From: an uncultured Desulfohalobiaceae bacterium
Lineage (GTDB): Bacteria; Desulfobacterota; Desulfovibrionia; Desulfovibrionales; Desulfothermaceae
DNA: 54,466 nucleotides
Direction of reading: 5' to 3'
Assembly: GCA_964621385.1 (NCBI GenBank)
Contig: CAZUMF010000001.1
Coordinates: 1-54,466, forward strand
Position numbers and translations under genes: made by a program. Position 1 is the stretch's first letter; each line of letters begins with the position of its first letter. Shown here piece after piece: positions 3,187-37,187 of this stretch. The notes under the pieces are model-generated. The model was not told the origin of the DNA and ran no database searches. It saw only the letters and a list, made by a program, of their open reading frames with translations.

Positions 3187-6100
3187 TCAAACTTTCGGAA
3201 GAAACTTCTCCAAATTTGGAAATTTGTCGTTCATATGGGGGATCCACATGGATCTGGCAAAAATCTTCTCAAACTTGGGATTCACAGTCAGCTCAATATA
3301 CTCGACCTTCCGCGCGAACTCATTGGCCTCATTTCTCTTGTCCGTGTTGAGCAGGGCCATACGAGCCCCGTCACCCGCAGCATTCCCAACGGAGACGACT
3401 TTATCGGGTTCACAGTCCAAAAACATGCCTAGCAGGGCAGCTGAAAGTCTGTCTATGTAGCTGCCGAACCCACCGGCCAAAACTACTTTATCGACTTTTT
3501 CAACACCATAGGTATCCAGCAAAATCTTGCTCCCGGCGTACATAGCTGCCTTGCCCAGCTGAATAGCTCTGATGTCGTCCTGGGAAACCACAACTGCCTC
3601 GCCGTGGGATGTTTCCTCCGATGTGGCGAGAACGAACTCTTTCGTCCCATCGACCTCTCGAAACCTTGGCGTATCTAAATCTTTCTTGAATTTTCCGGAT
3701 TTTTCGATGACTCCGGACAGGTACATTTGGGGTATGGCATCAATGATCCCGGAACCGCAGATACCTTTGGCGCCGGGATTTTCATCCATTTCAGTGCTCC
3801 AGCGATCATCGCCGATGATTTTAAAGCTGACCTCTTTGGTCTCCGGATCGATTTTTACTTTTTCGATCGCCCCAGGTGCTGCCCGCATGCCGTGTTTCAA
3901 CTCCGCACCTTCAAAAGCCGGCCCGGTGGCGCAGGAAGCCGAGATCAGCTTGTCCTTGTTGCCAAAGATCAATTCCCCATTGGTGCCGATATCGATGATA
4001 AGCTGAATTTCATCCTTCTTATACGGCTCCTCGCAGATGAGCACCCCCACATTGTCCGCCCCGACAAAACCGGCCTCTATAGGCAGGGAATGGACATAGG
4101 CCCCCTGAGATATGAGGATGCCGTTGCCCCGGACTTCCAATGTGTCCGCGGCGTCCTTCTCGGCATATATCGAGCAGTGCAGACAGCGCTTTGCTTCCTG
4201 GTTGACCATCTCCTCGTCAAAGCCCAATTCAACTTCGTCGAAAGTCATTCTCTTTGCCGGTTCGAGTATCGGCACCACCTGTCTGTTTGTTTTTTGAACC
4301 CCTTCTTTTGGTATGTCTTCCACTGCTTTGAATTGTGGAGGCCTGGCCTCCTTCATATCCATGCCAGAAAGAAGAAGCCCTATGGAAATGGCTGCTTCCT
4401 TACCGGCCGCTGTGGAGGAGACCACGTCAGTCGGACCGGTCACCACGTCCCCACCAGCGAAGACTCCAGCAACTGAGGTCTCCAAGGTCTCACTGTCCAC
4501 TTTGATCATACCGGAAGGAGTCTTTTCCAATTCAGGAAACAGATCCGCATTCGGCTTCTGCCCAATGGCCACGATCACAGTCTCGGTTTCAATGGTCGGG
4601 GCTGGGCCGTCTCCGTACCGAGGGGCGAATATCCCTTCGGAATCAAACACGGAAACACACTCGGCTGTCTCCACCGCCGAGACCCTGCCATTGCTGCTCA
4701 CAATCTGGGCCACACCCAGGGAATCGTGTACAATGACGCCTTCTTCCTTGGCCTGTTCGATTTCCAGATCCTGGGCCGGCATCCGTATTTCACATGTCAA
4801 ATCTGAGGATTCCAGGCAGATCAGATTGACTTCCTCGGCCCCCAGACGTTTGGACAGTCTGGCCGCATCAATAGCTACACTGCCTCCTCCAATGACCACC
4901 ACCCTGTCGCCCAGCTCGACTGTTTCTCCAGAGTTGGCCTGCTCCAAAAAAGCGACAGCCGGAATGACCCCCTGGGCGTCCTCGCCAGAAACGTTCAGTT
5001 TGAGGCTTGTCCAGCATCCGGACCCGATAAAAACGGCCTTGTATCCGGTATCAAAAAGTTCTTCAACGTTTTTGATTCTTGTGTTGGTCCTAATTTCTAC
5101 CCCAAACTCTTGGATAGAGGAAATTTCATTATCCAGAATATTCCGTGGCAATCGGTACTCGGGAATACCGTAACGCATCATGCCACCCGGTTTCGGAGCC
5201 GCCTCGAAAACAGTCACCGGGTGCCCTCTTCGGATCAAATCATAGGCGCAGGCAAGCCCGGAAGGTCCGGCGCCGATGATTCCAATTTTTTCCTCCTTTG
5301 AGATATCCACAGGTGTTGATTTCACTCTGCCTGACTGAAGTTCGTAATCCGCCAGGAAGCGATGTGCAGCCCGAATCGATATAGGTTCGTCGACTTGTCC
5401 CCTCTCGCAAACCTTTTCACATGCATGGGTGCAGACACGCCCCAAGATCCCTGCAAAAGGGAAGGAAATCCGGACAAGCTCCAAGGCCTCCTTGTACTTA
5501 TGCTGCGCAATCAGGTAGAGAAAGTCATCAATACTCAGTCCGGCCGGACACTCGACCCGGCATGGAGAATAACGACCCTTGTCAGTGGCTTCGGCTTCAG
5601 GTGGGATCTTGTACCCGAAATCACGGGCCTTGACATCGATGGAGTGGTGCATGCTCGGCGGGAAAGGCGACCGGCCGATGTATTTCGGATTCATGTTGAG
5701 ATAAAGATGATTCATGCAGGTATTGCCCACAATCGTCAGGTCTACGATATCCTGGCGTTTGATACCCGCCGCCGAGGCTGCCTCCTCGACCACACCGTTG
5801 AGCCCGTCCACAATGGCCCCGTTCAAGATTTCCAGGCCCTTGGGGTTGGTCATGGTGTAGCTGATCCGGGACATGACATCTTCGCCGTAGACCACCTGAG
5901 GATTCATCATCGAGGCCGTGGAGATAACCTTGCCGTTGGCCAAGTCTGTCAAGTAGCCGGCCACAGTGGATGTTCCCACATCTATGGCCATGCCGTAAGC
6001 CTTCTCATTGCGTCCCGGCTCAACCTTAATGATCTCCCTGTCCTGCCAGACAGTTACAGTGATCTTCCATTCGCCCTCGCGAATGGTGTTTTGCAACTCC

Positions 6101-6627
6101 ATGGCCACCTGATAATCAATGCCCAGATTTTTCAGGCCGTAAACCTTCTCCAAGGCACCCTGCAACCGTTCCAAGTCTCCCTGGTTTTCCTCCAAGGTTG
6201 GCTTTACAAGCTCCACATAATACTTCTTGACCGCGGGTTTTATTTCAATATCCAGTTCCTTGTGCGCCTTTCGGACTATCTGCTTGCCCATCCGGCTCTC
6301 CTCAGGAACAAAGACCACTACATTGCCCTGGACTTTCGCCTGACAGGACAAACGGTAGCCTTCCTCCTCCTGGCGGATATTGAAAAACTTTCTCTCCGAG
6401 GCTCCCATGGGAGAGAGACTGTCTCGTGAGGAATGAATGGCGTACTTTTCGAAATCCCCTTCTTCAACACGGATCTTACACGTCCCGCATATCGCCTGTT
6501 CTCCGCAAACACCTTCAAGATCGACACCAAGAGCAACAGAGGCCTCCTTGAGGGTCTTTCCCTCGCTGATATAACCGCGGGCTCCGGATGGTTGAAAAAT
6601 AACCAGATATTGATTTTTTTCTGCCAT
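3187..6627 (-). CDS. corrinoid reductive activase (2Fe-2S ferredoxin + ASKHA ATPase, COG3894-like) with an inserted GltD-like NAD(P)H:FAD/Fe-S oxidoreductase module
   Basis: 1146-aa ORF. Plant-type ferredoxin Cys motif (CGEQAICGTC...C95). ASKHA phosphate motifs AIDVGTST and IIDIGTNGE. Residues ~346-841 are a GltD/NfnB-like module (GRVCTHACEKVCER, GIIGAGPSGLACAYDL, VVVIGGGSVAIDAA, GVFAGGDVV, RCLHC). Confidence 0.8.
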   Translation of the reverse strand: MAEKNQYLVIFQPSGARGYISEGKTLKEASVALGVDLEGVCGEQAICGTCKIRVEEGDFEKYAIHSSRDSLSPMGASERKFFNIRQEEEGYRLSCQAKVQGNVVVFVPEESRMGKQIVRKAHKELDIEIKPAVKKYYVELVKPTLEENQGDLERLQGALEKVYGLKNLGIDYQVAMELQNTIREGEWKITVTVWQDREIIKVEPGRNEKAYGMAIDVGTSTVAGYLTDLANGKVISTASMMNPQVVYGEDVMSRISYTMTNPKGLEILNGAIVDGLNGVVEEAASAAGIKRQDIVDLTIVGNTCMNHLYLNMNPKYIGRSPFPPSMHHSIDVKARDFGYKIPPEAEATDKGRYSPCRVECPAGLSIDDFLYLIAQHKYKEALELVRISFPFAGILGRVCTHACEKVCERGQVDEPISIRAAHRFLADYELQSGRVKSTPVDISKEEKIGIIGAGPSGLACAYDLIRRGHPVTVFEAAPKPGGMMRYGIPEYRLPRNILDNEISSIQEFGVEIRTNTRIKNVEELFDTGYKAVFIGSGCWTSLKLNVSGEDAQGVIPAVAFLEQANSGETVELGDRVVVIGGGSVAIDAARLSKRLGAEEVNLICLESSDLTCEIRMPAQDLEIEQAKEEGVIVHDSLGVAQIVSSNGRVSAVETAECVSVFDSEGIFAPRYGDGPAPTIETETVIVAIGQKPNADLFPELEKTPSGMIKVDSETLETSVAGVFAGGDVVTGPTDVVSSTAAGKEAAISIGLLLSGMDMKEARPPQFKAVEDIPKEGVQKTNRQVVPILEPAKRMTFDEVELGFDEEMVNQEAKRCLHCSIYAEKDAADTLEVRGNGILISQGAYVHSLPIEAGFVGADNVGVLICEEPYKKDEIQLIIDIGTNGELIFGNKDKLISASCATGPAFEGAELKHGMRAAPGAIEKVKIDPETKEVSFKIIGDDRWSTEMDENPGAKGICGSGIIDAIPQMYLSGVIEKSGKFKKDLDTPRFREVDGTKEFVLATSEETSHGEAVVVSQDDIRAIQLGKAAMYAGSKILLDTYGVEKVDKVVLAGGFGSYIDRLSAALLGMFLDCEPDKVVSVGNAAGDGARMALLNTDKRNEANEFARKVEYIELTVNPKFEKIFARSMWIPHMNDKFPNLEKFLPKV

Positions 6628-8339: not shown

Positions 8340-8548
8340 ACGTCCTCCTTTGTAAGATATTGAATCGCATATCCCCCAAGCGCTGATCTCCTCCGAAATC
8401 CCCGTAAAACGTCAAAGGAAACCAACACCAAACATGTTCTCAATGAGTTTGAAAAACTATGACACAAGTCATCTTGTGAAATCTATCGTCAATTGTATGA
8501 ATTGTGCCCGGATAAGAGGTGAGATTCATTTGGGGGGAAGTCGAACAA

Positions 8549-9217
8549 TCAGGGTCGAACCTCTACGAGACCAAGTTCAATAGCAAACTTGATCAACTGG
8601 GAAAGACTGTTCATTTGCATTTTTTCCATGATTTTTGTGCGATGCGTTTTGACTGTACTCGAACTTATGAAAAGCATTTGCGATATTTCCTTTGTCGAGT
8701 ATCCTTCGGCAATGAGCTGGAATACTTCCCGTTCCCGATTGGAGAGCTTGCTGAAAAGGGTCTCCTGCAAGGATTTGTCTTGTCTCTGGGTGAGATAGTC
8801 CCGGACAACTTTCTTCGAAATGGAGGGGCTTAAAAAGATGTCACCCTGAACGACCGCCTTGACAGCCTTAATGATATCCTCCCCCGAAGATTTTTTGAGG
8901 AGATAGCCCGAAACACCTAAGCTGAATAGCTCACTGATGTAATAATCGTGGGAGTGCATGGAAAGAATGATAATCTTTGTCTCAGGGCAAAGCTTTCTTA
9001 TCTGTCGTGTGGCCTCTATCCCGTTCAACAAGGGCATGGTGATGTCCATCAGTACCACATCGGGAGTCAACTCTTCGGTTTTTTTCACGGCATCCCTGCC
9101 GTTCTCCGCCTCCCCGATGACCTTCAGCTCGGGATCATCATCCAGGATCCTGGCAAGGCCTTGGCGGATGACGGTATGGTCATCGCAGAGTAGAATAGTA
9201 TATTTTCCTTCAATCAC
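8549..9217 (-). CDS. NarL/FixJ (LuxR) family response regulator
   Basis: Receiver domain (ILLCDDH...VVLMDITMP) plus a LuxR-type HTH (LSNREREVFQLIAEGYSTKEISQMLFISSSTVKTHR). The likely GTG start at 9217 overlaps the kinase stop (GTGATTGA). The track ORF extends to 9277. Confidence 0.85.
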   Translation of the reverse strand: MIEGKYTILLCDDHTVIRQGLARILDDDPELKVIGEAENGRDAVKKTEELTPDVVLMDITMPLLNGIEATRQIRKLCPETKIIILSMHSHDYYISELFSLGVSGYLLKKSSGEDIIKAVKAVVQGDIFLSPSISKKVVRDYLTQRQDKSLQETLFSKLSNREREVFQLIAEGYSTKEISQMLFISSSTVKTHRTKIMEKMQMNSLSQLIKFAIELGLVEVRP

Positions 9218-13900: not shown

Positions 13901-14236
13901 CTATTTCCGATTATGCTGTAAAAGTGAACCATAATGCCGCTTGAAACTGGTGGAAGAATATTTACTCATTTTCCAGTCCGGGACTTTGCACTTTTCACAA
14001 GGTTTCGTAAACCACTTATTTCTGAGCCACCGAGCACCACGGCTGTTTTTTGAATTGTTGACCATGAATTGCATGTTGCAATGAGTGGTGATCCAGGCCT
14101 GTTCTCCTTTCTTTTCGATAGTTCTGATTCCATGAAGGACACCTTTCCGAGAAGGCCAGAGCTTGATTTTGTCAATAAGGCTGAAGAGCTCGACCCTCTT
14201 TCTGTAATACCTCTTGGCTGGTTCACATTTAACCAT
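13901..14236 (-). CDS. pylSn: PylSn, stand-alone N-terminal (tRNA-Pyl-binding) domain of pyrrolysyl-tRNA synthetase
   Basis: LWPSRKGVLHGIRTIEKKGEQAWITTHCNMQFMVNNSKNSRGARWLRNKWFTKPCEKCKVPDW aligns with the N-terminal domain of archaeal PylS (LWMSRTGTIHKIKHH...[28 protein letters not shown]). The ATG at 14236 overlaps the pylD stop (ATGGTTAA). The track ORF start at 14413 is an out-of-context extension. Ends in TAG. Confidence 0.8.
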   Translation of the reverse strand: MVKCEPAKRYYRKRVELFSLIDKIKLWPSRKGVLHGIRTIEKKGEQAWITTHCNMQFMVNNSKNSRGARWLRNKWFTKPCEKCKVPDWKMSKYSSTSFKRHYGSLLQHNRK

Positions 14237-14881
14237 TGGCAATTCTGACCAACATGGTTGCGGTTCCGATCTGCAATGGATCGTGTAAAATCCTCGATCC
14301 TGCTTCAGTGATCCCCTTTTGATCCAGACCAAGGGGCATGCCCGGAGCAGCAATGAACATCTCCCGGGAAATAACTTTGCCAGGGATGACTCCCGCCGCA
14401 TTCGTGGCTTCAAAGACCAATCGGCTCTGCTCCAAAGCTTTTTCCAAATGCTGAGTTATTGGAACCTCCTTTGAACTGATACTGCTCAGTTGTTCAGAAG
14501 CAGTTCGACTCTTGGTCCGGTCCAGATCGTACAGGGAGACATCGGCAAAATTGGGCAATCACTTTTTTTCCTGATTGCTTCCCCCAGTCCGCCAACATCT
14601 GTCTCATGGGCTACAAAAGCCGGACAACCTAAATATGCAGCGATCGAACAGACGGCTTCTGAAAAACCTGGAAGCGAACCCTGACCACTGGTTATTGGTA
14701 TAACAGCTGTGTGTAGGGTGGTCGAAAAGAATGGTGCATGCCACCTGCAAGTACGCGATTTTTCTTTACCCGGCTCTGGATTATCAGACTGATTCCTGAG
14801 CTATTTTTCAAATTGACTAATCAATCTTTTTAATAATTCCAGAATAATACAAAGAAGGTTTTTAACACTTCTTCCTTTCAT
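14229..14881 (-). pseudogene. pylD: pylD (3-methylornithyl-N6-L-lysine dehydrogenase), apparently disrupted
   Basis: The C-terminal frame (14229..14558) reads FEATNAAGVIPGK...PLQIGTATML, like the PylD C-terminus. A different frame upstream (14561..14881) reads AVIPITSGQGSLPGFSEAV...DVGGLGEAIRKK, like the PylD N-terminal domain. The two frames need a 1-nt correction near 14545..14563. An in-frame TAG lies at 14801..14803 with no start codon after it. No GxGxxG loop is visible, and the total is ~217 codons. Confidence 0.65.
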
Positions 14882-24917: not shown

Positions 24918-25042
24918 TCGTTGATCTGATTGAGATCAAGCCCTATCTTGTAGACTCTAAGTGCTCTGATTCGTAAGTTCGGTGGCGTATTCTCTATCAG
25001 TCCAATCGAACGAAGGAGGTGGGTTCTGACTTTGTAAATCCG

Positions 25043-25063
25043 AAATCCGAATATCGGATTTTT
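25043..25063 (+). terminator. weak AT-rich hairpin with T-run downstream of mttB
   Basis: AAATCCGA / TCGGATTT stem with a 3-nt loop, followed by extra T residues. The stem is short and AT-rich. Confidence 0.3.
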
Positions 25064-25194
25064 CAGCGTCGCTTCCGATTCCAATAGCGAACATGCTCTT
25101 GGCATTGCAATGTCATAGTATTTACGACTGCGTGTACTAAGTTTCAGCACAAAACAGCATTCAGGTATCAAAATCCAGGTCTTAGGAGGATAGC

Positions 25195-28051: not shown

Positions 28052-28511
28052 ATCCCTCGTATGAAACTTCATGTTAAATGACTCAAACTGGAGTTTCTTT
28101 TTGATCAAACTGGCAGTTGTGGACTTCAACCCAATAGATCAACAGCTTAGCCGTATATGACGATATATATAAACAATTATATGTCAGGCCTGCCAGAGGC
28201 AGGGCTGACACCTGATGCTGACTGCGAGTGTTCTCATGTTCAGTGTCCGCCGCCGGATTCTTCGCTCGAAGGTTGATACCGAACGTAAGATCCCTTCGTG
28301 ACTGCATCTGAAATCCCCAGTCATATTTCAACTCACGATGCTTTCGTCGTCTGAAATACGATTTTACGAGTGTAAGGGGACTATTTTTTTTTTCTCCCTT
28401 GACTCCATTGATATTTTTTGAGAATACTCAAGTAAGAGTACAATGATCAAAAGCTGTCCCTTTATGGATACATTCTCAAAAAAATGAATACCTTATCAAG
28501 GAGGTGAAACA

Positions 28512-29156
28512 ATGGACAAGAACGAGTATTTGGAGAAGGCCTCAAAAGCGATTCTAGAAGCTGATGAGGAAGAGGCCGTGAAATTAGCAGAAGCGTATTT
28601 GGAGGAGGGACTTGATCCAACGGAAATGATCGAGAACGGTCTTTCCGCCGGGATCATGAAGCTGGGAGATCTCTTTGACCGGGGAGAAGTCGTGCTTCCT
28701 CATGTCATTATTGCCTCCGAGGCTATGACAGCTGCGGTAAAAATTCTTGAAAAGGGTATGCCTGCTGAAGAAAAAGGGAAAAAAAAGGCAAAGGTCGTTT
28801 TGGGCACTGTGGAAGGGGACGTGCACGATATCGGCAAAGGCATTGTATCAACCATGTTAAAAGTCTATGGGTATGAGATTTTTGATCTGGGACGGGACGT
28901 CCCCATCGAGGAGTTTGTGGAAAAAGCCAAAGAAGTCAAGGCCGATGTGGTTGGTTCCTCGGCCTTGATGACGACCACTCAGGCCGGACAAAAAATCCTG
29001 GAAAAATCATTGAAGGAGGCTGGGATTCGAGAAAACATCAAAACCATGGTCGGTGGAGCGGCCACCACGGATCACTGGGCCGAAAAGATCGGAGCTGATT
29101 TTTGGGCTGAGAACGCAAGTGATACAGTGATGAAGCTGAATGAAATTTTTGACTAA
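28512..29156 (+). CDS. mtbC: corrinoid protein (MtbC-like by position)
   Basis: 214-aa ORF with a cap domain and a B12-binding domain carrying [10 protein letters not shown]. It lies 14 nt upstream of mtbB copy 2. The symbol is assigned from adjacency only. Confidence 0.85.
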
Positions 29157-29170
29157 CAGGAGGTGAAACT

Positions 29171-30571
29171 ATGGCCAAACACCTGACCAGACGGGGTGAC
29201 GGGGCATTCATTGAGATGAGCGCCGGCGAAATCATGAGAGACTTGGAGGAAGGGACTGCAGACGCTGCAGACAGGGGGAAAATCCCCCCTCTTTCTAAAG
29301 AAGAACTGGAAAAACTTCGAGATATCTTTTGCGATCCGGCCAAGTTTGTCAGCGTGGAACCGGGCAAAGAAGTGCCGCTGACTCATGATATCGGCACCTT
29401 GCGAGTGATGGGCGACCAGGGAAACAGTGGCGTTGGAATCCCCTTGAGCCGTGTTCAAGGCATCCAGGTGCACGAAAGGGCACTGTGCGCCGATACCATG
29501 GAGTTGGGGCATATCGACTACAGCTTCAAGCCTGTCAAACCGGTCATTGCCATGGAACAACAGGAGTTGGAAAACGCTTTGTTGTCTACGGTTCTGCCGC
29601 TCTTTTACGGAGCCATGCCCAATCTCGGGACGTACTATGAGCCCGACGGACCTTTCGGAAATCCTTCGGATTTGCTGCCAGCAGGCAAAATCAAGGAGGC
29701 TTACGCAGCTCAAGAAGGAGCAGTGGAACACGCAACACGAGACATGATCTTTGTCAGCGAAAAACTTGCAGAAGTCGGTTGCGATGGGATCAACATCGAC
29801 ACGACAGGGGCTGCCGGCGACACAGACTTTAAAGCCACCCTGCACGCTGTTGAACATCTCAAAAAGCATACGAAAATGTGCATTGAGGTTGGTATGGCGG
29901 GCGAATTTGTCCTGGGGATGCATGGAGGCCTCGAATATGACGGGAAAAAGCTCCATGGACTGTATTGCCATCAACAGGTAGAATTGGTTGAGAAATCAGG
30001 TGCGGATATTTTTGGGCCAGTGGTGAATACGAAACCGAGCAGATCCATGCCTTGGAATCTGGCCAGGGCGGTCACATTCATCAAAAAAACTGTGGAAACA
30101 TCCAATATCCCCATCCATGTGAATATGGGTATGGGGGTCGGCGGTTCACCTGTATTTGAGACCCCTCCCATTGACTCTGTGAGCAGGGCCTCCAAGGCGA
30201 TGGTGGAAATAGCCGGCGTAGACGGGTTGTAGGTAGGTGTGGGAGACCCCATGGGGATGTCTATAGCTCATGCAGTGGCAGCGGGAATGGGTGGAATCAG
30301 GACCGCCGGAGACCTGGTGGCCCGCATGCAGATGACCCGCAAGATGCGGATCAATGATGCAAAAGCCTACGTTGCCGAAAAGCTTCAGTTGTCCCCATTT
30401 GACCTGTCAGACGTCCACGTAATGAGAGAGGTCCGCGAGGAGCGAGACATCGGAATCATTACTTCAGTCCCAGGTTGTGCCAAGGGAATCGAGGCCAAGG
30501 CTCGCATCGCCGAGTTGCTCGATATCGAGATTGCAGGGGTAACGCGTCTCAAGGAAAAAATGAAACTGTAA
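29171..30571 (+). CDS. mtbB: dimethylamine:corrinoid methyltransferase MtbB (copy 2) with an in-frame UAG (pyrrolysine) at 30230..30232
   Basis: Track ORFs 29171..30232 and 30239..30571 share a frame and are separated only by TAG. The joined product is 466 aa. [45 protein letters not shown] matches my recollection of Methanosarcina MtbB. Terminates in TAA. Confidence 0.9.
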
Positions 30572-30595
30572 ACAAAACAAGACAACCCAAGTGAC

Positions 30596-30692
30596 ATACC
30601 AGCAGTTGGCACCGACAGCGCTTTTGCATGAGTCTTCACCGCAGGCTTCAACGGAGATGTATGACCTGTTGGTTTGGGCCAACTGCTGGTAT
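30596..30692. repeat. 15-bp perfect inverted repeat with a 67-nt spacer
   Basis: ATACCAGCAGTTGGC (30596..30610) and GCCAACTGCTGGTAT (30678..30692), in the noncoding gap after mtbB copy 2. Confidence 0.6.
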
Positions 30693-30893
30693 TGAATAAA
30701 ACGCCTGGGAGCGAGAGCACATTCTTCTACCTCGGTTTCTCTGAGCCTTTGTGCAGGCTCATCTTAAGCAAATCTTTCAGAAAAAATAGAGAGCGAGCCG
30801 TTGACACATTGCATCACTCCCTGAACGGACAAGATCTACTCCTTGAACTTATAAAGAGGCGCAACCACACTTCATGACGATGAACCCTACCCT

Positions 30894-31454
30894 ATGAGAA
30901 ACGATAGCTCCGAAAAAGAATTGACACACGCTCTCAAAGAGATGGCCAGCAAACACAATGTAAAGCTTTTTTCCTATGATGTGCAGCAAATAAAGCCTTC
31001 TGAGAGTATCCGGCTCAAATGTCAAGTGCCGCTTTGCGAGTACTACGGGGTCTGCAAAGTCTGTCCTCCACATATCCCGAGTGTGGAAGAATTCAGAAAA
31101 ATACTGAAAGATTACACGCAATGTTTTCTGGTTGTCTTTCAGGAAGATATAGATAATATTGCCCTCTACCGCCACGACTACCGGGCAGAATTGAAACTGG
31201 CAGAAGCAGTGTCTGAGTTGGAGAATACTGCCTTTGTGCACGGAGAATACATGGCCTTGGGTTTGACAGTTGGCGGCTGCAAATTATGCAGCGATTGCAC
31301 CGCTGCCGGTGAACCGTGCCGGCATCCTTTCAAGGCCCGTCCCAGCCCAGAAGGATTTGGCATTGACATTACCAGGATGGCACGGGAAGTTGGCGTGCCT
31401 GTGGAATGGCCCCCTCGGAAAACGGTCAATTTCATAGGTCTTGTTCTCATATGA
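30894..31454 (+). CDS. DUF2284-like Cys-rich metal-binding protein (copy 2)
   Basis: 186-aa ORF with CQVPLCEYYGVCKVCPP and CKLCSDCTAAGEPC motifs. Paralogous to 966..1592. Confidence 0.6.
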   Translation: MRNDSSEKELTHALKEMASKHNVKLFSYDVQQIKPSESIRLKCQVPLCEYYGVCKVCPPHIPSVEEFRKILKDYTQCFLVVFQEDIDNIALYRHDYRAELKLAEAVSELENTAFVHGEYMALGLTVGGCKLCSDCTAAGEPCRHPFKARPSPEGFGIDITRMAREVGVPVEWPPRKTVNFIGLVLI

Positions 31455-31584
31455 TCAATCTCTCAGATCATTTACCCCACAACTGATATCAGCAATTCAC
31501 TCAGATATGATCCCTGTTTATTGTTTCAGCAGAACCTTATCATCTCCCCTCTGAAGTGGGAAGTTCCTGAAAGGAGACCCATAC

Positions 31585-32568
31585 ATGGCTCGGCATTCAG
31601 CTTTTTCATCAGATATGAACACGATACACAGCAACGTGTCTCAGGAGGTTGTTGGCAGAAAAACTGAAATTCAATTGATACTGACTGCTCTGCACGCTGG
31701 AAAACACATCCTGCTTGAAGGGCCTCCAGGCACATCCAAATCTACTTTACTCCGGGCAATCGCCAAGGAAACAGGCATGCCTTTCTATATCGTAGAGGGG
31801 AATATCGATCTGACACCCGCCAAAGTTGTTGGTCATTTCAACCCATCAGGGGTCTTGAAAGACAGCTACCAAATGGAACACTTTGAACAGGGCCCCCTGA
31901 CCAAAGCCATGCTGGAAGGGGGAATCCTTTACATTGAAGAGTTCAACCGTATGCCGGCTGATGTTTCCAACGTGCTCATTTCACCCATGGAAGAAGGAGA
32001 AATTTCCATCCCCAGATATGGAAGCATCACAGCGGTTCCTTCATTCACCGTTATTGCAGCTCAAAACCCCTATGATGACGTTGGAACCGTCAGGGTCAGC
32101 AAAGCCTTCATGGACCGAGTTTGCTTAATCAAAATGGAATACCAGAACAAGGAGGAGGAACAGGAGATTGTTAAACGCCGAACCGGGGTGCTGCATCCTG
32201 ATATCACTGGTTTGGCCGTTGACATGGTCCGCAGGACAAGAGAGCATTCTGATCTTAAGGTCGGCGCATCAGTTCGGGGAGCCATTGACATGGTTGATCT
32301 CCTGACCGGCCTCCTGCAAATGGACAACCGGATCGAGCACAACCTTCTCCTGGCGGCCCGTATGGCTTTATCCAATAAGATTTGGCTGAGTGAAATGACC
32401 GAAAAAAATACAGACGAGATCGTTGAGGAAATCCTCGAAAGTCTCAAGCTTCAATTTACTGATTTGATCAAAAGCAATGAACCACTTCCCCCTGAATCAC
32501 TCCAAACGGACACCGATGATGACCTCCCTTCTGAAACAGGACAGGCAAAAAAAAAAGCAGCCATGTAG
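31585..32568 (+). CDS. MoxR-like AAA+ ATPase
   Basis: 327-aa ORF with Walker A LLEGPPGTSKST, Walker B-like ILYIEEFNR and MoxR/CbbQ/CobS-like architecture. Ends in TAG immediately after an A10 run. Confidence 0.8.
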   Translation: MARHSAFSSDMNTIHSNVSQEVVGRKTEIQLILTALHAGKHILLEGPPGTSKSTLLRAIAKETGMPFYIVEGNIDLTPAKVVGHFNPSGVLKDSYQMEHFEQGPLTKAMLEGGILYIEEFNRMPADVSNVLISPMEEGEISIPRYGSITAVPSFTVIAAQNPYDDVGTVRVSKAFMDRVCLIKMEYQNKEEEQEIVKRRTGVLHPDITGLAVDMVRRTREHSDLKVGASVRGAIDMVDLLTGLLQMDNRIEHNLLLAARMALSNKIWLSEMTEKNTDEIVEEILESLKLQFTDLIKSNEPLPPESLQTDTDDDLPSETGQAKKKAAM

Positions 32569-32621
32569 GAGAACAATTTCTTGATCCCAAACAGGACACC
32601 CAGTACTCTTACTTCTACCGT

Positions 32622-33425
32622 ATGGCCTCCTACCTGAATGCTCATCCTGAAAAGCTCCCGGATTTTTTTGAGCAGCAAGATGCTCTTGAGATGTTCGCAA
32701 ATGTGTATGGCATGCTGAAACAGAATGTCCGGAATCTTGCTGTCAAACTTGCCAGTCGGCTCATCATCAAAATTGCAAAGCAGATTGCTGATACTGGATA
32801 CCGTTCCGGCAAACTGAAACTGGTCAAGGGTTGTGCAGATGGAGCCGAATTGGAATTGGACAGGAGTCTGGAACGATATACTGAGGAACCGGAAATGGGT
32901 ATTGCTGACTGTTTAATGTCACTTACCAGGTATAAGGAACGTGAAGCTTTTGTCATGATATTTGACCGCAGCTATTCAATGAGAGGTATGAAAATCATCC
33001 TTGCCGCTATTACCGCAGCCTCAATTGCCAGACATTTCAGAAGAAATTATGCGATCCTTGCCTTCAGCAATGATGTCTCCGTTATCAAGGGGATCGATTC
33101 CACAGACGGACCCGAGACCATTCTTGAACGATTGTTTGCCTTGACGCTACAAGGAGATACGGACATTCACCAGGCTCTGGAAAAAGGCCTGGCCCATATC
33201 AGAAAATTTGAACGAAAACGTGGTCTTATCCTCACGGATGGGGCTTGGAACCGAGGAAAGAACCCTCTCTCAGTCGCTGGTCGCTTTGACAAGCTCAGTG
33301 TGATCGGTTTTCCACCGGCCAACATGGATAAAATCAGACCATTAGCCTTGAAAGGTCAGGGTGAACTCTCCTTTGTTGAAGATGAAACCACAATCGGCGG
33401 AGCCATCCTCAAGTCACTAAATTAA
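32622..33425 (+). CDS. von Willebrand factor A (VWA) domain protein, partner of the MoxR ATPase
   Basis: 267-aa ORF with a MIDAS-like DRSYSMRG motif. There is no SD before ATG 32622, and its frame stays open for 29 codons upstream, into the end of the ATPase gene. Confidence 0.7.
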   Translation: MASYLNAHPEKLPDFFEQQDALEMFANVYGMLKQNVRNLAVKLASRLIIKIAKQIADTGYRSGKLKLVKGCADGAELELDRSLERYTEEPEMGIADCLMSLTRYKEREAFVMIFDRSYSMRGMKIILAAITAASIARHFRRNYAILAFSNDVSVIKGIDSTDGPETILERLFALTLQGDTDIHQALEKGLAHIRKFERKRGLILTDGAWNRGKNPLSVAGRFDKLSVIGFPPANMDKIRPLALKGQGELSFVEDETTIGGAILKSLN

Positions 33426-33460
33426 CGTATCACACGATAGTTCGAATCGCAGGGGGAACG

Positions 33461-34555
33461 ATGCACACAACCTCAACATATCTTTCTACCATTCTTGAAA
33501 AGGCAACAAAAGGTTCAAGAATTTCCCGTAAGGAGACGACGTATCTGTTGTCGCTGAGAGACCCCGAAGCCATCCAACGAGTGATATCGACCGCCCGTGA
33601 CGTTTGCCGGCAGAACTTTGGGAACAGTGTTTTTTTATACGGGTTCATCTATTTTTCAACATATTGCCGCAATCAATGTGCTTTTTGCTTTTATCGGCAA
33701 TCCAATACCCGCAGTCCGCGGTATCGGAAAAACCTGGACGAAGTGGTGCGTACAGCCTGTTATCTGGTTGATTCCGGGGTTCATCTGGTTGACCTGACCA
33801 TGGGTGAAGATCCCCTGCTTCATGAATCGGGTTTTCAAAGGCTTCTCCAGATTATAGCCCGGATAAAACAGAAAACAGGCATTCCCATCATGGTTTCCCC
33901 GGGTGTCGTGCCCGACGATCTGTTCAAGGAGTTTACGAAGCTTGAGGTTGACTGGTATGCATTGTATCAGGAGACGCACAACCCGACACTTTTTCAGAAG
34001 CTGCGGATCAATCAGGACTATGAGATCCGGAACAAGAAAAGAATCACAGCTCAGCAGGCCGGCATGCTCGTCGAAGACGGGATACTGATAGGAATCGGGG
34101 AGAGTGTTGCTGATCGAGCAGATTCAATCATGACCATGAAACGCAGCCTTTTGGATCAGGTTCGAGTCATGAGCTTTGTGCCCCAACCTGAAACTCCCTT
34201 GGCCAGAACACATACCTTACCCAGAATCAATGAAATCTTGTGTATAGCCGCGATGCGTCTGGCTATGCCGGATCAACTGATCCCAGCTTCCTTAGATGTA
34301 GACGGATTGGAAGGACTCAAGATGCGCTTGGAAGCAGGAGCGAACGTGGTCACTTCGATCATTCCTCCCAGCAATACGTTAGCCGGTGTCGCCCAAACTT
34401 CTCTGGATGTGGAAGAAGGCCGACGCTCGGTGCGTGAAGTGACGAAAATTCTGTCTCAGATGGATCTGGTCCCTGCCAGCAGAGAGGACTATGAATACTG
34501 GATCAAAGAGAGGAAAAAAACACAGCCCACGTCCTTGGAGGTGATCATGACCTAA
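33461..34555 (+). CDS. pylB: PylB, radical-SAM 3-methylornithine synthase
   Basis: 364-aa ORF. FGNSVFLYGFIYFSTYCRNQCAFCFY, VDLTMGEDP, ALYQETHNPTLFQKLR, VEDGILIGIGES, VRVMSFVPQPETPL and LIPASLDVDGLEGLKMRLEAGANVVTSIIPP track my recollection of Methanosarcina PylB block by block. Confidence 0.85.
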   Translation: MHTTSTYLSTILEKATKGSRISRKETTYLLSLRDPEAIQRVISTARDVCRQNFGNSVFLYGFIYFSTYCRNQCAFCFYRQSNTRSPRYRKNLDEVVRTACYLVDSGVHLVDLTMGEDPLLHESGFQRLLQIIARIKQKTGIPIMVSPGVVPDDLFKEFTKLEVDWYALYQETHNPTLFQKLRINQDYEIRNKKRITAQQAGMLVEDGILIGIGESVADRADSIMTMKRSLLDQVRVMSFVPQPETPLARTHTLPRINEILCIAAMRLAMPDQLIPASLDVDGLEGLKMRLEAGANVVTSIIPPSNTLAGVAQTSLDVEEGRRSVREVTKILSQMDLVPASREDYEYWIKERKKTQPTSLEVIMT

Positions 34556-34704: not shown

Positions 34705-35760
34705 TCAAGCCGAACGGCTTCTTTCATGATCGTATTCTCGAACCGCCTCGACCATGGCTCGAATGTTGACCGTGGGAGTCTCCGGTGGAACACCGCAGCT
34801 TGGCTCGATGAAATCAGCGCCATCTTCGATCGATTTTTTAACTTCTGCCTTGACTTCTTCCAGAGATCCCGAGACGAGTGTTCTTTTGGAACTGATGGTT
34901 CCCAATATTTTGACATCACCGACGATGGGCTTTATCCTGCGGATATTGACCGATTCGTCAACGCTGATGGCATCATAGCCGCAACTTACTAAAAACGGAA
35001 CCATCGACTCAACTTTTCCCCCGATATACAACATGCGCAGACCACCAAGGCTCTCTGATATTGTTATAAGAGCCGGTTTTATAATCTCATTCAAAGATTC
35101 TTTCGTTGTCAACACAGGTGTTAAGGCACCATCAGCGACCGTCACGATGTCTGAGCCGCTTCTATATTGCGCTTTTGCGAATTGAATGATAATAGAAGTT
35201 GCAAAGTCGATGAGTTTCTTGAAGGCTGCGGGATCCTTCAAGGTCATCATGGACAGGGACTCAAGACCGATCAATTCGCCAGCCAGGGTGAAAGGCCCGA
35301 CGACGTGGCTCGAAATTGGCAGATAGTCACCCACCTCATCTCTCGCCCTTCTAATCGCTTCGAGTACAACAGGAACACGGCCCATCTTCAAAAAGCCTTC
35401 CGGTTCTTTCATTTCCCCTGGGTCTTTATAAGGATGCTCGATGACTACCGGATAGAAATGCATCTTTTCCTGATAATGGACAGGGCATCCCAGGGCCTCG
35501 GCCTCGATCACGTTGTCAAAGGGAATCTTGACGTTCTCAATCCCTCCGATTTCGTAGGCCGCGATGGCTAGCTTGGCCATCTGCCGAGTATCCCTGAGAG
35601 CATCCGGCCAGGTTAACCCTGTCTCACGCTGCATCTCGACATTCACAGCCCCGCAGCAGCCAGTCAGGGAGGTAACCGGGGGAGTCTTTCTCTGTTTTCC
35701 CAACAACGCTTGAAAAACTCTCTGTTTTGGGCTCAATTCCATAATCTGTTCCGGGTGCAT
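34705..35760 (-). CDS. URO-D family methyltransferase, MtaA/MtbA-like (MT2-type), copy 3
   Basis: 351-aa ORF that is URO-D/MtbA-like (IPFDNVIEAEALGC, MLYIGGK). Confidence 0.8.
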   Translation of the reverse strand: MHPEQIMELSPKQRVFQALLGKQRKTPPVTSLTGCCGAVNVEMQRETGLTWPDALRDTRQMAKLAIAAYEIGGIENVKIPFDNVIEAEALGCPVHYQEKMHFYPVVIEHPYKDPGEMKEPEGFLKMGRVPVVLEAIRRARDEVGDYLPISSHVVGPFTLAGELIGLESLSMMTLKDPAAFKKLIDFATSIIIQFAKAQYRSGSDIVTVADGALTPVLTTKESLNEIIKPALITISESLGGLRMLYIGGKVESMVPFLVSCGYDAISVDESVNIRRIKPIVGDVKILGTISSKRTLVSGSLEEVKAEVKKSIEDGADFIEPSCGVPPETPTVNIRAMVEAVREYDHERSRSA

Positions 35761-36034: not shown

Positions 36035-36769
36035 TTAGATTGGGGAATGCCCATTTCCATTCTTCTTGGCAATCACCAGGGTCCAATAGTCCGGAGGCAT
36101 CATCTCCAGATCACGAACATTGGTGATAATTTGCTCCTTGTCTCGACCGCACCTGGATATGGCCATGCTGTATTCCAAAAATCCGGTTTCCTCCATGGCA
36201 TCATTGATATCTTTGGTGTTCCGATAGGCTTTGAACAACACCACATTCTCGACACACTGCGAAATATTTCGCAATCTCTCTCCACCAAGAGCCCCGGAGG
36301 TGATGACGAGGGACTCCTCGTCCTCAACCAGAACCGTATTCAAACGTGCCGCCACCGCCTGTGGAGTACAAATTCCCGGAATGGTTCTGATCCTGGCTAA
36401 TGGATCCAAGTCCTGCAACTGCTTCAATATATACCCATAGGTAGAATACGTCATTGGGTCCCCTAAGGTCAAGAAGGCGACATCCAGGCCTTGGTCCATT
36501 TCGCGCTTCAAGGCCCTGGCATTTTCCCGCCAGGCTGGGTACGTCACTCGCTTGTCTTTGGTCATGGGAAAATCAAGGAGTCTGACTTCAGTGTCTCCAT
36601 CAATGTATGGTTTGGCAATGGTCACCGCCAGGCTGTGCTGATTTTTACTCGAAGAAGCCGCGAAAATGACGTGAACGATCTCTAACGCCTTGACGGCCTT
36701 CAAGGTGATCAGCTCAGGATCACCCGGCCCCACCCCTATGCCGTAAAGGGTGCCCTTTTTCATGTTCAT
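36035..36769 (-). CDS. cbiL: precorrin-2 / cobalt-factor II C20-methyltransferase
   Basis: Tetrapyrrole methylase signature GTLYGIGVGPGDPELITLKA and FLTLGDPMTYSTY. The start is taken at the MNMKKG ATG after gaggtga. The track ORF extension to 36943 runs into the terminator and riboswitch. Confidence 0.85.
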   Translation of the reverse strand: MNMKKGTLYGIGVGPGDPELITLKAVKALEIVHVIFAASSSKNQHSLAVTIAKPYIDGDTEVRLLDFPMTKDKRVTYPAWRENARALKREMDQGLDVAFLTLGDPMTYSTYGYILKQLQDLDPLARIRTIPGICTPQAVAARLNTVLVEDEESLVITSGALGGERLRNISQCVENVVLFKAYRNTKDINDAMEETGFLEYSMAISRCGRDKEQIITNVRDLEMMPPDYWTLVIAKKNGNGHSPI

Positions 36770-36842
36770 AATCACCTCGTCCTGAATTAAACATTGACCG
36801 CAGTTACGACAATATTTGATCTTCCCTTTTCCTATCACCCCC

Positions 36843-36880
36843 AAAAAAAAACCGGATCGAATAGCGCTTATTCGATCCGG
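36843..36880 (-). terminator. intrinsic terminator (riboswitch expression platform)
   Basis: On the minus strand, CCGGATCGAATA-loop-TATTCGATCCGG (12-bp perfect stem) is followed by T9. It lies between the riboswitch and cbiL. Confidence 0.75.
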
Positions 36881-36944
36881 GGATTTCCCTTTTTTATCCA
36901 CCATGATCAAATGAGTTTCCAACCTCGGGAAACCATCATCCATG

Positions 36945-37140
36945 TTCAGGCAGGTCTTCTGACTTACGGATCGCCCTACTTGCCCGGTTGAAAAGATTCT
37001 TCAGAGAAATATCAACCAGGCTCACCGCCCCTTCCCATCGGATGTTTTCCAACAGTGGTTCTTTGCGGTTTTCGTCACCGATTACAGCCGCGGGCCGGTC
37101 CCTGAGTCGCACAGGGTTCCCTTTTTCGCTCCTATCGAGC
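36945..37140 (-). promoter_or_regulatory. cobalamin (B12) riboswitch
   Basis: The minus strand reads AAAAGGGAACCCTGTGCGACTCAGGGACCGGCCCGCGGCTGTAATCGG ... GAACCACTGTTGG ... GATGGGAAGG ... AGAAGACCTGCC. This parallels the E. coli btuB leader blocks (AGGGAA-UCCAGUGCGAAUCUGGA-GC..CGCAGCGGUAAGG, B12 box CACUG, GGGAAG, GAAGACCUGCC). Confidence 0.8.
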
Positions 37141-37187
37141 ACCTGAACACATCACATATCAATGAATCGCCTTATTCCTCCAAAGAT

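Follow-up and report, generated by a model that had tools for sequence, protein, structure and literature searches.

Why does a pyrrolysine (Pyl) biosynthesis gene, pylB, stand directly behind genes for a DUF2284 protein, a MoxR-type AAA+ ATPase and a VWA/MIDAS protein, downstream of the genes for a dimethylamine methyltransferase and its corrinoid protein? This arrangement lies in a 54,466-nucleotide stretch of DNA, called here the window (contig CAZUMF010000001.1 of assembly GCA_964621385.1, positions 1 to 54,466, forward strand), from an uncultured Desulfohalobiaceae bacterium. A first-pass annotation, made from the letters alone, had proposed that the three genes form a maturation or cofactor-loading module for the corrinoid or methyltransferase proteins, and had left their coupling to pylB unexplained. 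We find that, across other genomes, the ATPase and VWA genes (hereafter the pair), usually together with DUF2284, are conserved alongside corrinoid methyltransferase genes, and that the ATPase and VWA genes are most likely one frameshift-joined gene. The explanation towards which we lean, by a little more than an even chance, is an ATP-driven remodelling machine that would dock on MtbB/MtbC for insertion, exchange or rescue of the corrinoid, with DUF2284 as an optional partner and pylB as a passenger. The cassette has the following features:

28512..29156, + strand: mtbC, dimethylamine-type corrinoid protein (B12-binding and B12-binding_2 domains; TIGR02370 246 bits, cut-off 215)
29171..30571, + strand: mtbB copy 2, pyrrolysine-type dimethylamine:corrinoid methyltransferase (Dimeth_Pyl on both halves; TIGR02368 646.6 bits, one TAG)
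30894..31454, + strand: DUF2284 protein, 186 aa (PF10050 146.7 bits, cut-off 25)
31585..32568, + strand: AAA_5/MoxR-type ATPase, short product, 327 aa (AAA_5 84.6 bits, cut-off 22; bpMoxR 38.6 bits; AAA_3)
32547..32556, + strand: A10 slippery run, proposed -1 frameshift or transcriptional slippage site at the ATPase-VWA frame junction
32535..33425, + strand, nominal ATG at 32622: VWA/MIDAS frame (VWA_2, VWA_CoxE and VWA, all above cut-offs)
33461..34555, + strand: pylB, radical S-adenosylmethionine (SAM) methylornithine synthase (TIGR03910 457.1 bits, cut-off 348.2; 456.9 bits in the genome search)

Open reading frames (ORFs) and profile matches bear out the four genes from DUF2284 to pylB where the first-pass annotation had placed them. 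Its description of short gaps on one strand holds from DUF2284 to the ATPase (130 nt), from the ATPase to VWA (53 nt) and from VWA to pylB (35 nt), but not from mtbB to DUF2284, where the gap is 322 nt. The in-frame TAG of mtbB copy 2 lies at 30230-30232, with a PYLIS_2 match at 30230-30329.

A scan guided by the VWA profile, with each species represented by one genome, gave 79 loci, in which all close orthologues were bacterial; these loci were searched by tblastn with the window proteins and the Pyl proteins of the genome as queries. VWA orthologues occur in several phyla at 55-75% identity. Within the VWA clade of at least 61% identity, 15 of the 17 loci with enough upstream DNA carry mtbC-mtbB-(DUF2284)-MoxR-VWA on one strand, with mtbC, the first gene of the conserved cassette, immediately 5' of mtbB in all 15. 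These loci come from Thermodesulfobacteriota, Bacillota and Nitrospirota, and their proteins are only 56-73% identical. Such recurrence across three phyla, in 15 of the 17 informative loci, exceeds what chance would give. The two exceptions (L019 and L020) lie in genomes that hold mtbB elsewhere. DUF2284 is present in 12 of the 15 ordered loci. In Actinomycetota the pair is instead convergent with Pyl-type mtbB and mttB, adjacent or at about 1 kb in four loci and at 7-9 kb in two more. One actinomycete locus (L100, 6715-8641, - strand) carries, divergently upstream of a pair that faces Pyl-type mtbB/mttB, genes for a 292-aa non-PylB radical-SAM protein and a DUF8230 protein. Order-level and phylum-level phyletic tests gave no statistics, MtbB being too rare (4 of 301 and 3 of 401 genomes). 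The first-pass annotation had seen no such module described for methylamine systems, and our literature search agrees: it found no paper linking MoxR/VWA or DUF2284 to mtbB, pyrrolysine or corrinoid methyltransferases.

The pair has also been inherited with a particular lineage of the enzyme. In the MtbB tree, a pair-linked clade of 16 rows from four phyla is 71-86% identical to the window MtbB, and four Actinomycetota rows stand nearby. The pair-linked MtbBs thus form two adjacent groups, apart from the MtbBs of pair-less genomes, with 2 label changes against 11.6 when labels are shuffled, in a sample biased by the VWA search that supplied the linked loci. A parallel association exists outside the methylamine enzymes. 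A sister VWA subclade (support 100/100) stands beside methanol-type hyp201-RACo-MtaB-CobW-MtaC-MtaA clusters (L038, L042 and L044), and both MtbB and PylB are missing from 8 of the 10 genomes with this subclade. What the two settings share is therefore corrinoid-dependent methyl transfer and not pyrrolysine. L059 has the same MtaB-cluster neighbours, with a partial VWA match that falls outside the tree. The hyp201 of these clusters is a 201-aa protein without a family match (L098, 6111-6716, - strand; also L038, L044 and L059), always between the pair and RACo-MtaB; it has no homology to DUF2284. A more distant pair clade is found in Actinomycetospora genomes (L066-L088, for example L069, 7676-10792), with an ATPase about 42% and a VWA protein about 29% identical to ours.

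Both parts of the pair have intact motifs. The ATPase retains Walker A (GPPGTSKS), a Walker B-like YIEEFNR, the sensor AAQNP, FMDRV and GASVRGA, and its PDB matches are the midasin AAA domain (118 bits), MoxR 2R44 (68), NorQ (58) and CbbQ (45). The MIDAS is complete, D115xS117xS119, T180 and D206 being invariant in 20 VWA sequences, and fold matches of the VWA structural model include Rea1-MIDAS and NorD (in the NorQD complex).

Several observations point to joint translation of these parts. In 29 loci, drawn from all three subclades, the ATPase ORF carries an A9-A12 run at its 3' end, and the VWA frame is in -1 and opens at or just before the run. In-frame ATPase-VWA fusions occur in nine loci, six of which still hold an A9-A10 run. 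Between the run and the nominal VWA start, orthologues share the peptide KKK..R[YF]VG[DN].FL....SY[FY][FY]R[VI]A[ST], the window peptide VGEQFL...YSYFYR upstream of the ATG is conserved in them, and the codon aligned to that ATG is Val or Ile in most orthologues. The stretch upstream of the nominal VWA start is therefore read as a translated continuation of the ATPase. Standard decoding would give a ChlI-like ATPase of 327 aa, and -1 slippage on A10 is predicted to give a ChlD-like product of about 610 aa, consisting of ATPase, acidic linker and VWA with an intact MIDAS. In the experimentally studied 'magnesium chelatase' frameshift genes, the efficiency of -1 frameshifting on poly-A was 63% for A11, 40% for A9 and 10% for A7 (PMC3711429).

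The trio of the first-pass annotation thus keeps its three domains, DUF2284, MoxR and VWA, but is better described as DUF2284 plus one recoded AAA+-VWA gene. For annotation, this means that what is listed as two 'genes' in dozens of genomes is most likely a single gene that yields two products, and the frameshifted-chlD principle would extend beyond CobN-dependent chelatases. A variant is seen in Desulfatiglandales (L038, 7754-9820), where two tandem MoxR ATPase ORFs, 65% and 64% identical to that of the window, precede a single VWA frame.

The pylB gene is intact and clearly PylB-like, as had first been noted: it exceeds its curated cut-off, aligns over its full length with Methanosarcina barkeri PylB (3T7V; 277 bits, residues 11-346) and carries the radical-SAM CX3CX2C motif as CRNQCAFC, against CKNQCSFC in 3T7V. 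It clusters with the PylBs of complete pyl operons and not outside the PylB clade, the pair-linked PylBs grouping with the operon PylBs of L032 and L033 (support 96/94). The label 'orphan' was correct in that neither pylC nor pylD adjoins, but the genome holds every other pyl gene elsewhere. A second pylB (478 bits), which adjoins an EamA transporter gene on contig C46, is 47.6% identical to the window PylB and groups with a canonical pylBC operon; pylS and tRNA-Pyl (pylT) are on contig C232, pylC is at the end of C232 and pylD at the start of C355. Within the window, two fragments of a decayed pylD, in different frames (model positions 50-101 and 169-265), precede an intact pylSn (PylS N-terminal subunit, 128 bits). 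This region (13901-14713, - strand) resembles the surviving 3' part of an earlier pyl operon, and it is kept at 70-74% in a genus relative (G119).

The position of pylB now has a historical explanation in place of none. A VWA frame followed by pylB on the same strand is found in the window and in six other loci (L018, L023, L025, L028, L032 and L035), and on the opposite strand in a seventh. Whole pyl operons adjoin the cassette in two loci, with the order MoxR-VWA-pylB-pylS-pylC-pylD in L032 and with pylBCD a few kilobases upstream of the pair in L033, and several relatives have kept pylB. In the genomes of L018, L025 and L035 (G301, G303 and G305), the pair-linked PylB is the sole one found, and pylC is on another contig or distant. 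Because of the tree grouping and the L032/L033 neighbourhoods, we read the place of pylB behind the helper genes as an inherited layout with no sign of new function. To judge by its sequence, the window gene is an ordinary PylB, a second and horizontally acquired copy, predicted to convert lysine to 3-methylornithine. The split layout shows that pylB can be inherited separately from pylC and pylD.

Both DUF2284 genes of the genome lie in the window and both belong to corrinoid methyltransferase operons; the second (966-1592, - strand) ends an MtrH-corrinoid protein-RACo-URO-D operon. Seven cysteines are invariant (C43, C48, C57-PP and C129xxC132xxC135x6C142), and the protein probably carries an iron-sulfur (Fe-S) cluster. 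In an uncultured Desulfobacterales (L023), the DUF2284 orthologue at 8365-8916 has an in-frame TGA (codon 8752-8754) at the invariant Cys132 of CxxCxxC. This TGA probably encodes selenocysteine, in which case Cys132 would be redox- or metal-active. The AlphaFold model (pLDDT 78) has a nitroreductase-like fold. In a PDB fold search the best named matches were plain flavin mononucleotide (FMN) nitroreductases (Z up to 8.2), NpRdhA (8.0), QueG (7.5), MMACHC (6.6) and PceA (6.3), all weak matches in the range usual for unmatched models (Z 6-8). Among Swiss-Prot models, Foldseek gave QueG in 10 of the top 11 matches and MMACHC in one, again weakly (E-values 0.08-0.3), and in the ESM Atlas the nearest non-self clusters were QueG_DUF1730 (TM 0.55-0.57). 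High-E-value Pfam scans returned nothing relevant, a sequence-feature search of the ESM protein atlas gave no usable match, and no solved relative was found. When relatives were searched for QueG sequences from which to build a profile, only 1 of 21 genomes gave a match, below the cut-off. We take a corrinoid-binding Fe-S protein, as suggested by the model, as a lead only.

The cassette is foreign to the genus. In a DNA comparison, the window is syntenic with three genus relatives from 17.4 to 28.0 kb (77-85%), and from 28.2 to 37 kb it has no DNA match in them; the break falls at a repeat of about 135 nt (28079-28215) that is found throughout the genus. This and two other short repeats (157-333 and 24956-25144) occur in dozens of copies in the genome and its genus relatives, at 75-99% identity, and look like elements of the miniature inverted-repeat transposable or repetitive extragenic palindromic type. 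In the source lake metagenome, read depth is about 1000-fold over the repeat and about 11-fold over its flanks. The depths of the two flanks are equal in two samples (10.5 and 11.1; 4.1 and 4.2), which fits one genome and does not prove the join. The assembly comprises 646 contigs with 96% completeness and 7% contamination, and at 5.4 Mb it exceeds the three genus relatives (3.0-3.8 Mb); some contigs of the bin may be foreign.

We propose that the region is a horizontally mobile cassette of mtbC, mtbB, DUF2284, the recoded AAA+/VWA gene and pylB. The short and long products of the recoded gene would assemble as a mixed AAA+ ring, as in ChlI/ChlD, CobS/CobT and NorQ/NorD. This motor might grip MtbB or the MtbB-MtbC complex through its MIDAS domain, and ATP could then drive a remodelling that inserts, exchanges or rescues the corrinoid cofactor. 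DUF2284 might join it as an optional partner that handles corrinoid or carries electrons. The pylB gene would have been kept from a time when the cassette adjoined a whole pyl operon, and would contribute to pyrrolysine for MtbB while standing outside the chaperone. Among the possible steps we prefer cofactor loading or exchange, because the motor is chelatase-like, because MtbB and MtaB share a homologous corrinoid protein, and because reductive activases are present separately. The first-pass proposal of a maturation or cofactor-loading module is thus made reasonable by co-conservation, with a biochemical role that we still infer and a DUF2284 that proves facultative.

To our knowledge, how the corrinoid proteins of methyltransferase systems for methylamines, methanol and related substrates acquire and retain B12 is poorly understood, and the sole accessory step we can name is reductive reactivation by RamA/RACo. 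A helper set that travels with one MtbB lineage, together with a sister set that travels with MtaB, points to an undescribed ATP-dependent step of assembly or repair. Such a set may explain why active preparations of some of these enzymes are difficult to obtain from foreign hosts, and it offers a defined group of genes for co-expression. A more specific version, in which the pair and DUF2284 form a dedicated corrinoid loading or exchange machine, with a ChlI/ChlD-like motor minus CobN and a CblC/QueG-like Fe-S carrier, strikes us as rather unlikely. If true, anaerobic methyltransferases would gain their first known system of B12 delivery, a bacterial equivalent of the CblC/CblD route that leads to methionine synthase.

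A number of observations weigh against the remodelling machine that we favour. DUF2284 is absent from L027, L033, L054 and the Actinomycetota loci; its fold matches are weak, as noted, and hhalign, comparing its profile with that of QueG, returned a probability of 0.7%. MtbB occurs without the pair in at least five genomes (G067, G099, G119, G478 and G691; three of the same genus, with 2-4 mtbB matches each, and two others of the phylum) and in four other copies in this genome, so that the pair is not generally required. The 11 alignment columns that discriminate pair-linked MtbBs hold no Cys/His or acidic cluster that could mark a clade-specific metal site. Pairs stand alone in L040 and L055, and the pair of L069 directly follows a Zn-dependent alcohol dehydrogenase gene; no corrinoid gene was recognised around it, ORF choice in this high-GC DNA probably being poor. 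Our loci were gathered through a VWA search, which biases the set towards pair-bearing loci. The window comes from the bin with 7% contamination and is joined through a high-copy repeat, and in the source lake metagenome the public Logan contigs stop at this 28.1-kb repeat, none bridging it. The sequencing runs that hold the locus are DNA metagenomes, with no RNA run among them (no separate RNA-only search was made).

Other explanations assign the pair a different job or none. The cysteines of DUF2284 lend themselves to a reductive activase in which DUF2284 would supply the electron and the AAA+ protein the energy to bring Co(II)-MtbC to Co(I), in place of RamA/RACo in this operon. That corrinoid proteins require ATP-coupled reactivation is established for RamA/RACo, and the Fe-S-like spacing of the seven invariant cysteines, the probable selenocysteine in one orthologue, the placement of the ATPase after DUF2284 and the lack of a RACo gene within the cassette are all as this proposal would have it. 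We nevertheless judge it quite unlikely, since six RACo-type genes are present in the genome, including two in the window, a RACo gene is the immediate neighbour of the sister subclade, DUF2284 is also the last gene of operons with a RACo of their own, and several cassettes lack DUF2284; moreover, we know of no MoxR/VWA system that drives electron transfer. That there is no functional link at all, and the genes merely hitch-hike on a mobile island, would suit a block that begins at a repeat, has no DNA counterpart in genus relatives from 28.2 kb and belongs to a cassette spread across phyla. Against this, gene order and strand persist across three phyla at protein identities of only 56-73%, Actinomycetota have arrived at an independent arrangement beside mtbB, the link to MtaB clusters runs in parallel, and no integrase or transposase was noticed in the window gene scans. 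We consider hitch-hiking distinctly improbable.

The recoded layout raises the further idea of a class I chelatase I/D motor that serves a CobN/ChlH-type subunit encoded elsewhere, with the mtbB neighbourhood incidental. A short ATPase and a long ATPase-VWA product made by -1 slippage on poly-A are just the frameshifted chlD layout, and the genome has a CobN-like gene that is missing, like the pair, from the three genus relatives. Yet the ATPase is of AAA_5 type, to which it matches better than to PF01078 Mg_chelatase (39.8 bits, residues 111-163 only), and its synteny is with mtbB or mtaB. The CobN-like gene lies on contig C93, away from the pair, in an uptake-type cluster with CbiK, ExbB, ExbD and TonB. 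CobN (PF02514) was rejected as a third subunit, being found in only 3 of 14 pair genomes, and we hold the chelatase account to be highly improbable. We give no more credence than that to a role in pyrrolysine, whether helping PylB or the making or decoding of Pyl. It is invited by the recurrence of pylB behind the VWA frame, by pylSBCD within 10 kb in three Actinomycetota loci and by the single clade formed by pair-linked PylBs. This adjacency is confounded, however, as bacterial pyl operons adjoin methylamine genes anyway. In addition, most sister-subclade genomes lack both PylB and MtbB, the Bacillota and Nitrospirota cassettes have an MttB-family gene and not pylB after the pair, and five Pyl-using genomes do without the pair.

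The remaining features near the cassette are an RNA hairpin and the genes that follow pylB:

30596..30692, + strand: long hairpin in the mtbB-DUF2284 spacer (fold of 30572-30893, -89.9 kcal/mol, z = -2.5, stem of about 21 bp)
34705..35760, - strand: MtaA/MtbA-like URO-D methylcobamide methyltransferase (URO-D 222 bits; NF004889 294 bits, cut-off 244)
36035..37161, - strand: cbiL, precorrin-2 C20-methyltransferase, with riboswitch (TIGR01467 206 bits)
36932-37161, - strand: cobalamin riboswitch upstream of cbiL (RF00174 98.6 bits)

No T-tract terminator was called at the spacer hairpin, which is possibly a partial terminator or an RNA stabiliser and may set different expression levels for the enzyme and helper genes. 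The convergent URO-D-type gene does end 149 nt past pylB, as first described, with neither pylC nor pylD next to it; the riboswitch and cbiL lie upstream of this gene on the same strand. In L034, cbiL likewise adjoins a pair-linked pylB. Overall, the window forms a methylamine island, with two Pyl-type mttB genes, two mtbB, one mtmB, one Pyl-free MttB homologue, five corrinoid proteins, three URO-D methyltransferases, two RACo activases and two ABC importers. One of the activases (3187-6627, - strand) is a 1146-aa RACo-type protein with fused 2Fe-2S, DPD-type 4Fe-4S and FAD/NAD(P) oxidoreductase domains; it belongs to the MtrH-corrinoid protein-RACo-URO-D-DUF2284 operon and could be a self-contained NAD(P)H-driven activase. 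On contig C93 (L130, 1-11035), the CobN-like gene is cut by the contig end and followed by CbiK, a tetratricopeptide repeat protein, DUF3450, ExbB, ExbD and TonB. This cluster, which was not found in the three genus relatives, looks like a system for tetrapyrrole uptake or salvage.

Compared with known systems, the recoded gene most resembles the frameshifted chlD genes (Antonov et al. 2013, PMC3711429). Both have an AAA+ ORF followed by a VWA ORF in -1 on poly-A, both are listed in annotations as two separate genes of about 1 kb each, with fused homologues in other genomes, and both have an acidic linker before VWA and a tetrapyrrole-related context. Unlike those genes and the class I chelatases, the ATPase here is AAA_5/MoxR-like and has no full Mg_chelatase domain, and scores for the BchD, CobS and Cob-chelatase equivalogs were far below cut-offs. 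No CobN/ChlH partner is present in 11 of the 14 pair genomes, and the neighbours are corrinoid methyltransferase genes instead of genes for cobalamin or chlorophyll synthesis. NorQ/NorD and CbbQ/CbbO share with our pair an AAA_5 ATPase and a MIDAS VWA protein encoded beside the enzyme that is matured or reactivated. NorD and CbbO have roughly 600-750 aa, whereas the VWA part here has about 270 aa and would be made by recoding, and its neighbours are MtbB and MtaB, not NO reductase or Rubisco. With the GvpN equivalog at 86.6 bits against a cut-off of 266.8, and with mtbB and mtaB as neighbours, the ATPase falls outside the NorQ/CbbQ/GvpN group. CoxD/CoxE, which mature the Mo-Cu CO dehydrogenase, likewise combine a MoxR ATPase with a small VWA protein, and VWA_CoxE (PF05762) matches the window protein and all its homologues; that match is weak (28.4 bits), and no CO dehydrogenase genes are nearby.

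RamA and RACo resemble the helper set in being ATP-using accessory proteins within corrinoid methyltransferase clusters and in carrying Fe-S clusters. They differ in their ASKHA ATPase fold, and RACo genes are separate both in the window and beside the sister subclade; a domain scan found no RACo_C_ter in the DUF2284, ATPase and VWA genes, which places these outside the RamA/RACo family. QueG and RdhA carry Fe-S clusters, and together with CblC (MMACHC) they are the best named matches of the DUF2284 model in three libraries. The scores are weak, DUF2284 shows no profile-level similarity to them, and it differs in its much smaller size and its own cysteine pattern. As in the bacterial pyl operons (pylT-pylSc-pylB-pylC-pylD-pylSn), pylB is full-length and above its curated cut-off, and all other pyl genes are in the genome. 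Here, unlike in those operons, the genes are in at least four places, with pylB duplicated and one pylD decayed, and the window pylB stands behind an AAA+/VWA gene, as in several relatives. The parts are of known kinds, namely MoxR/VWA chaperones, frameshifted chlD and PylB; what appears new is the client system that they would serve, the absence of CobN and the company of DUF2284.

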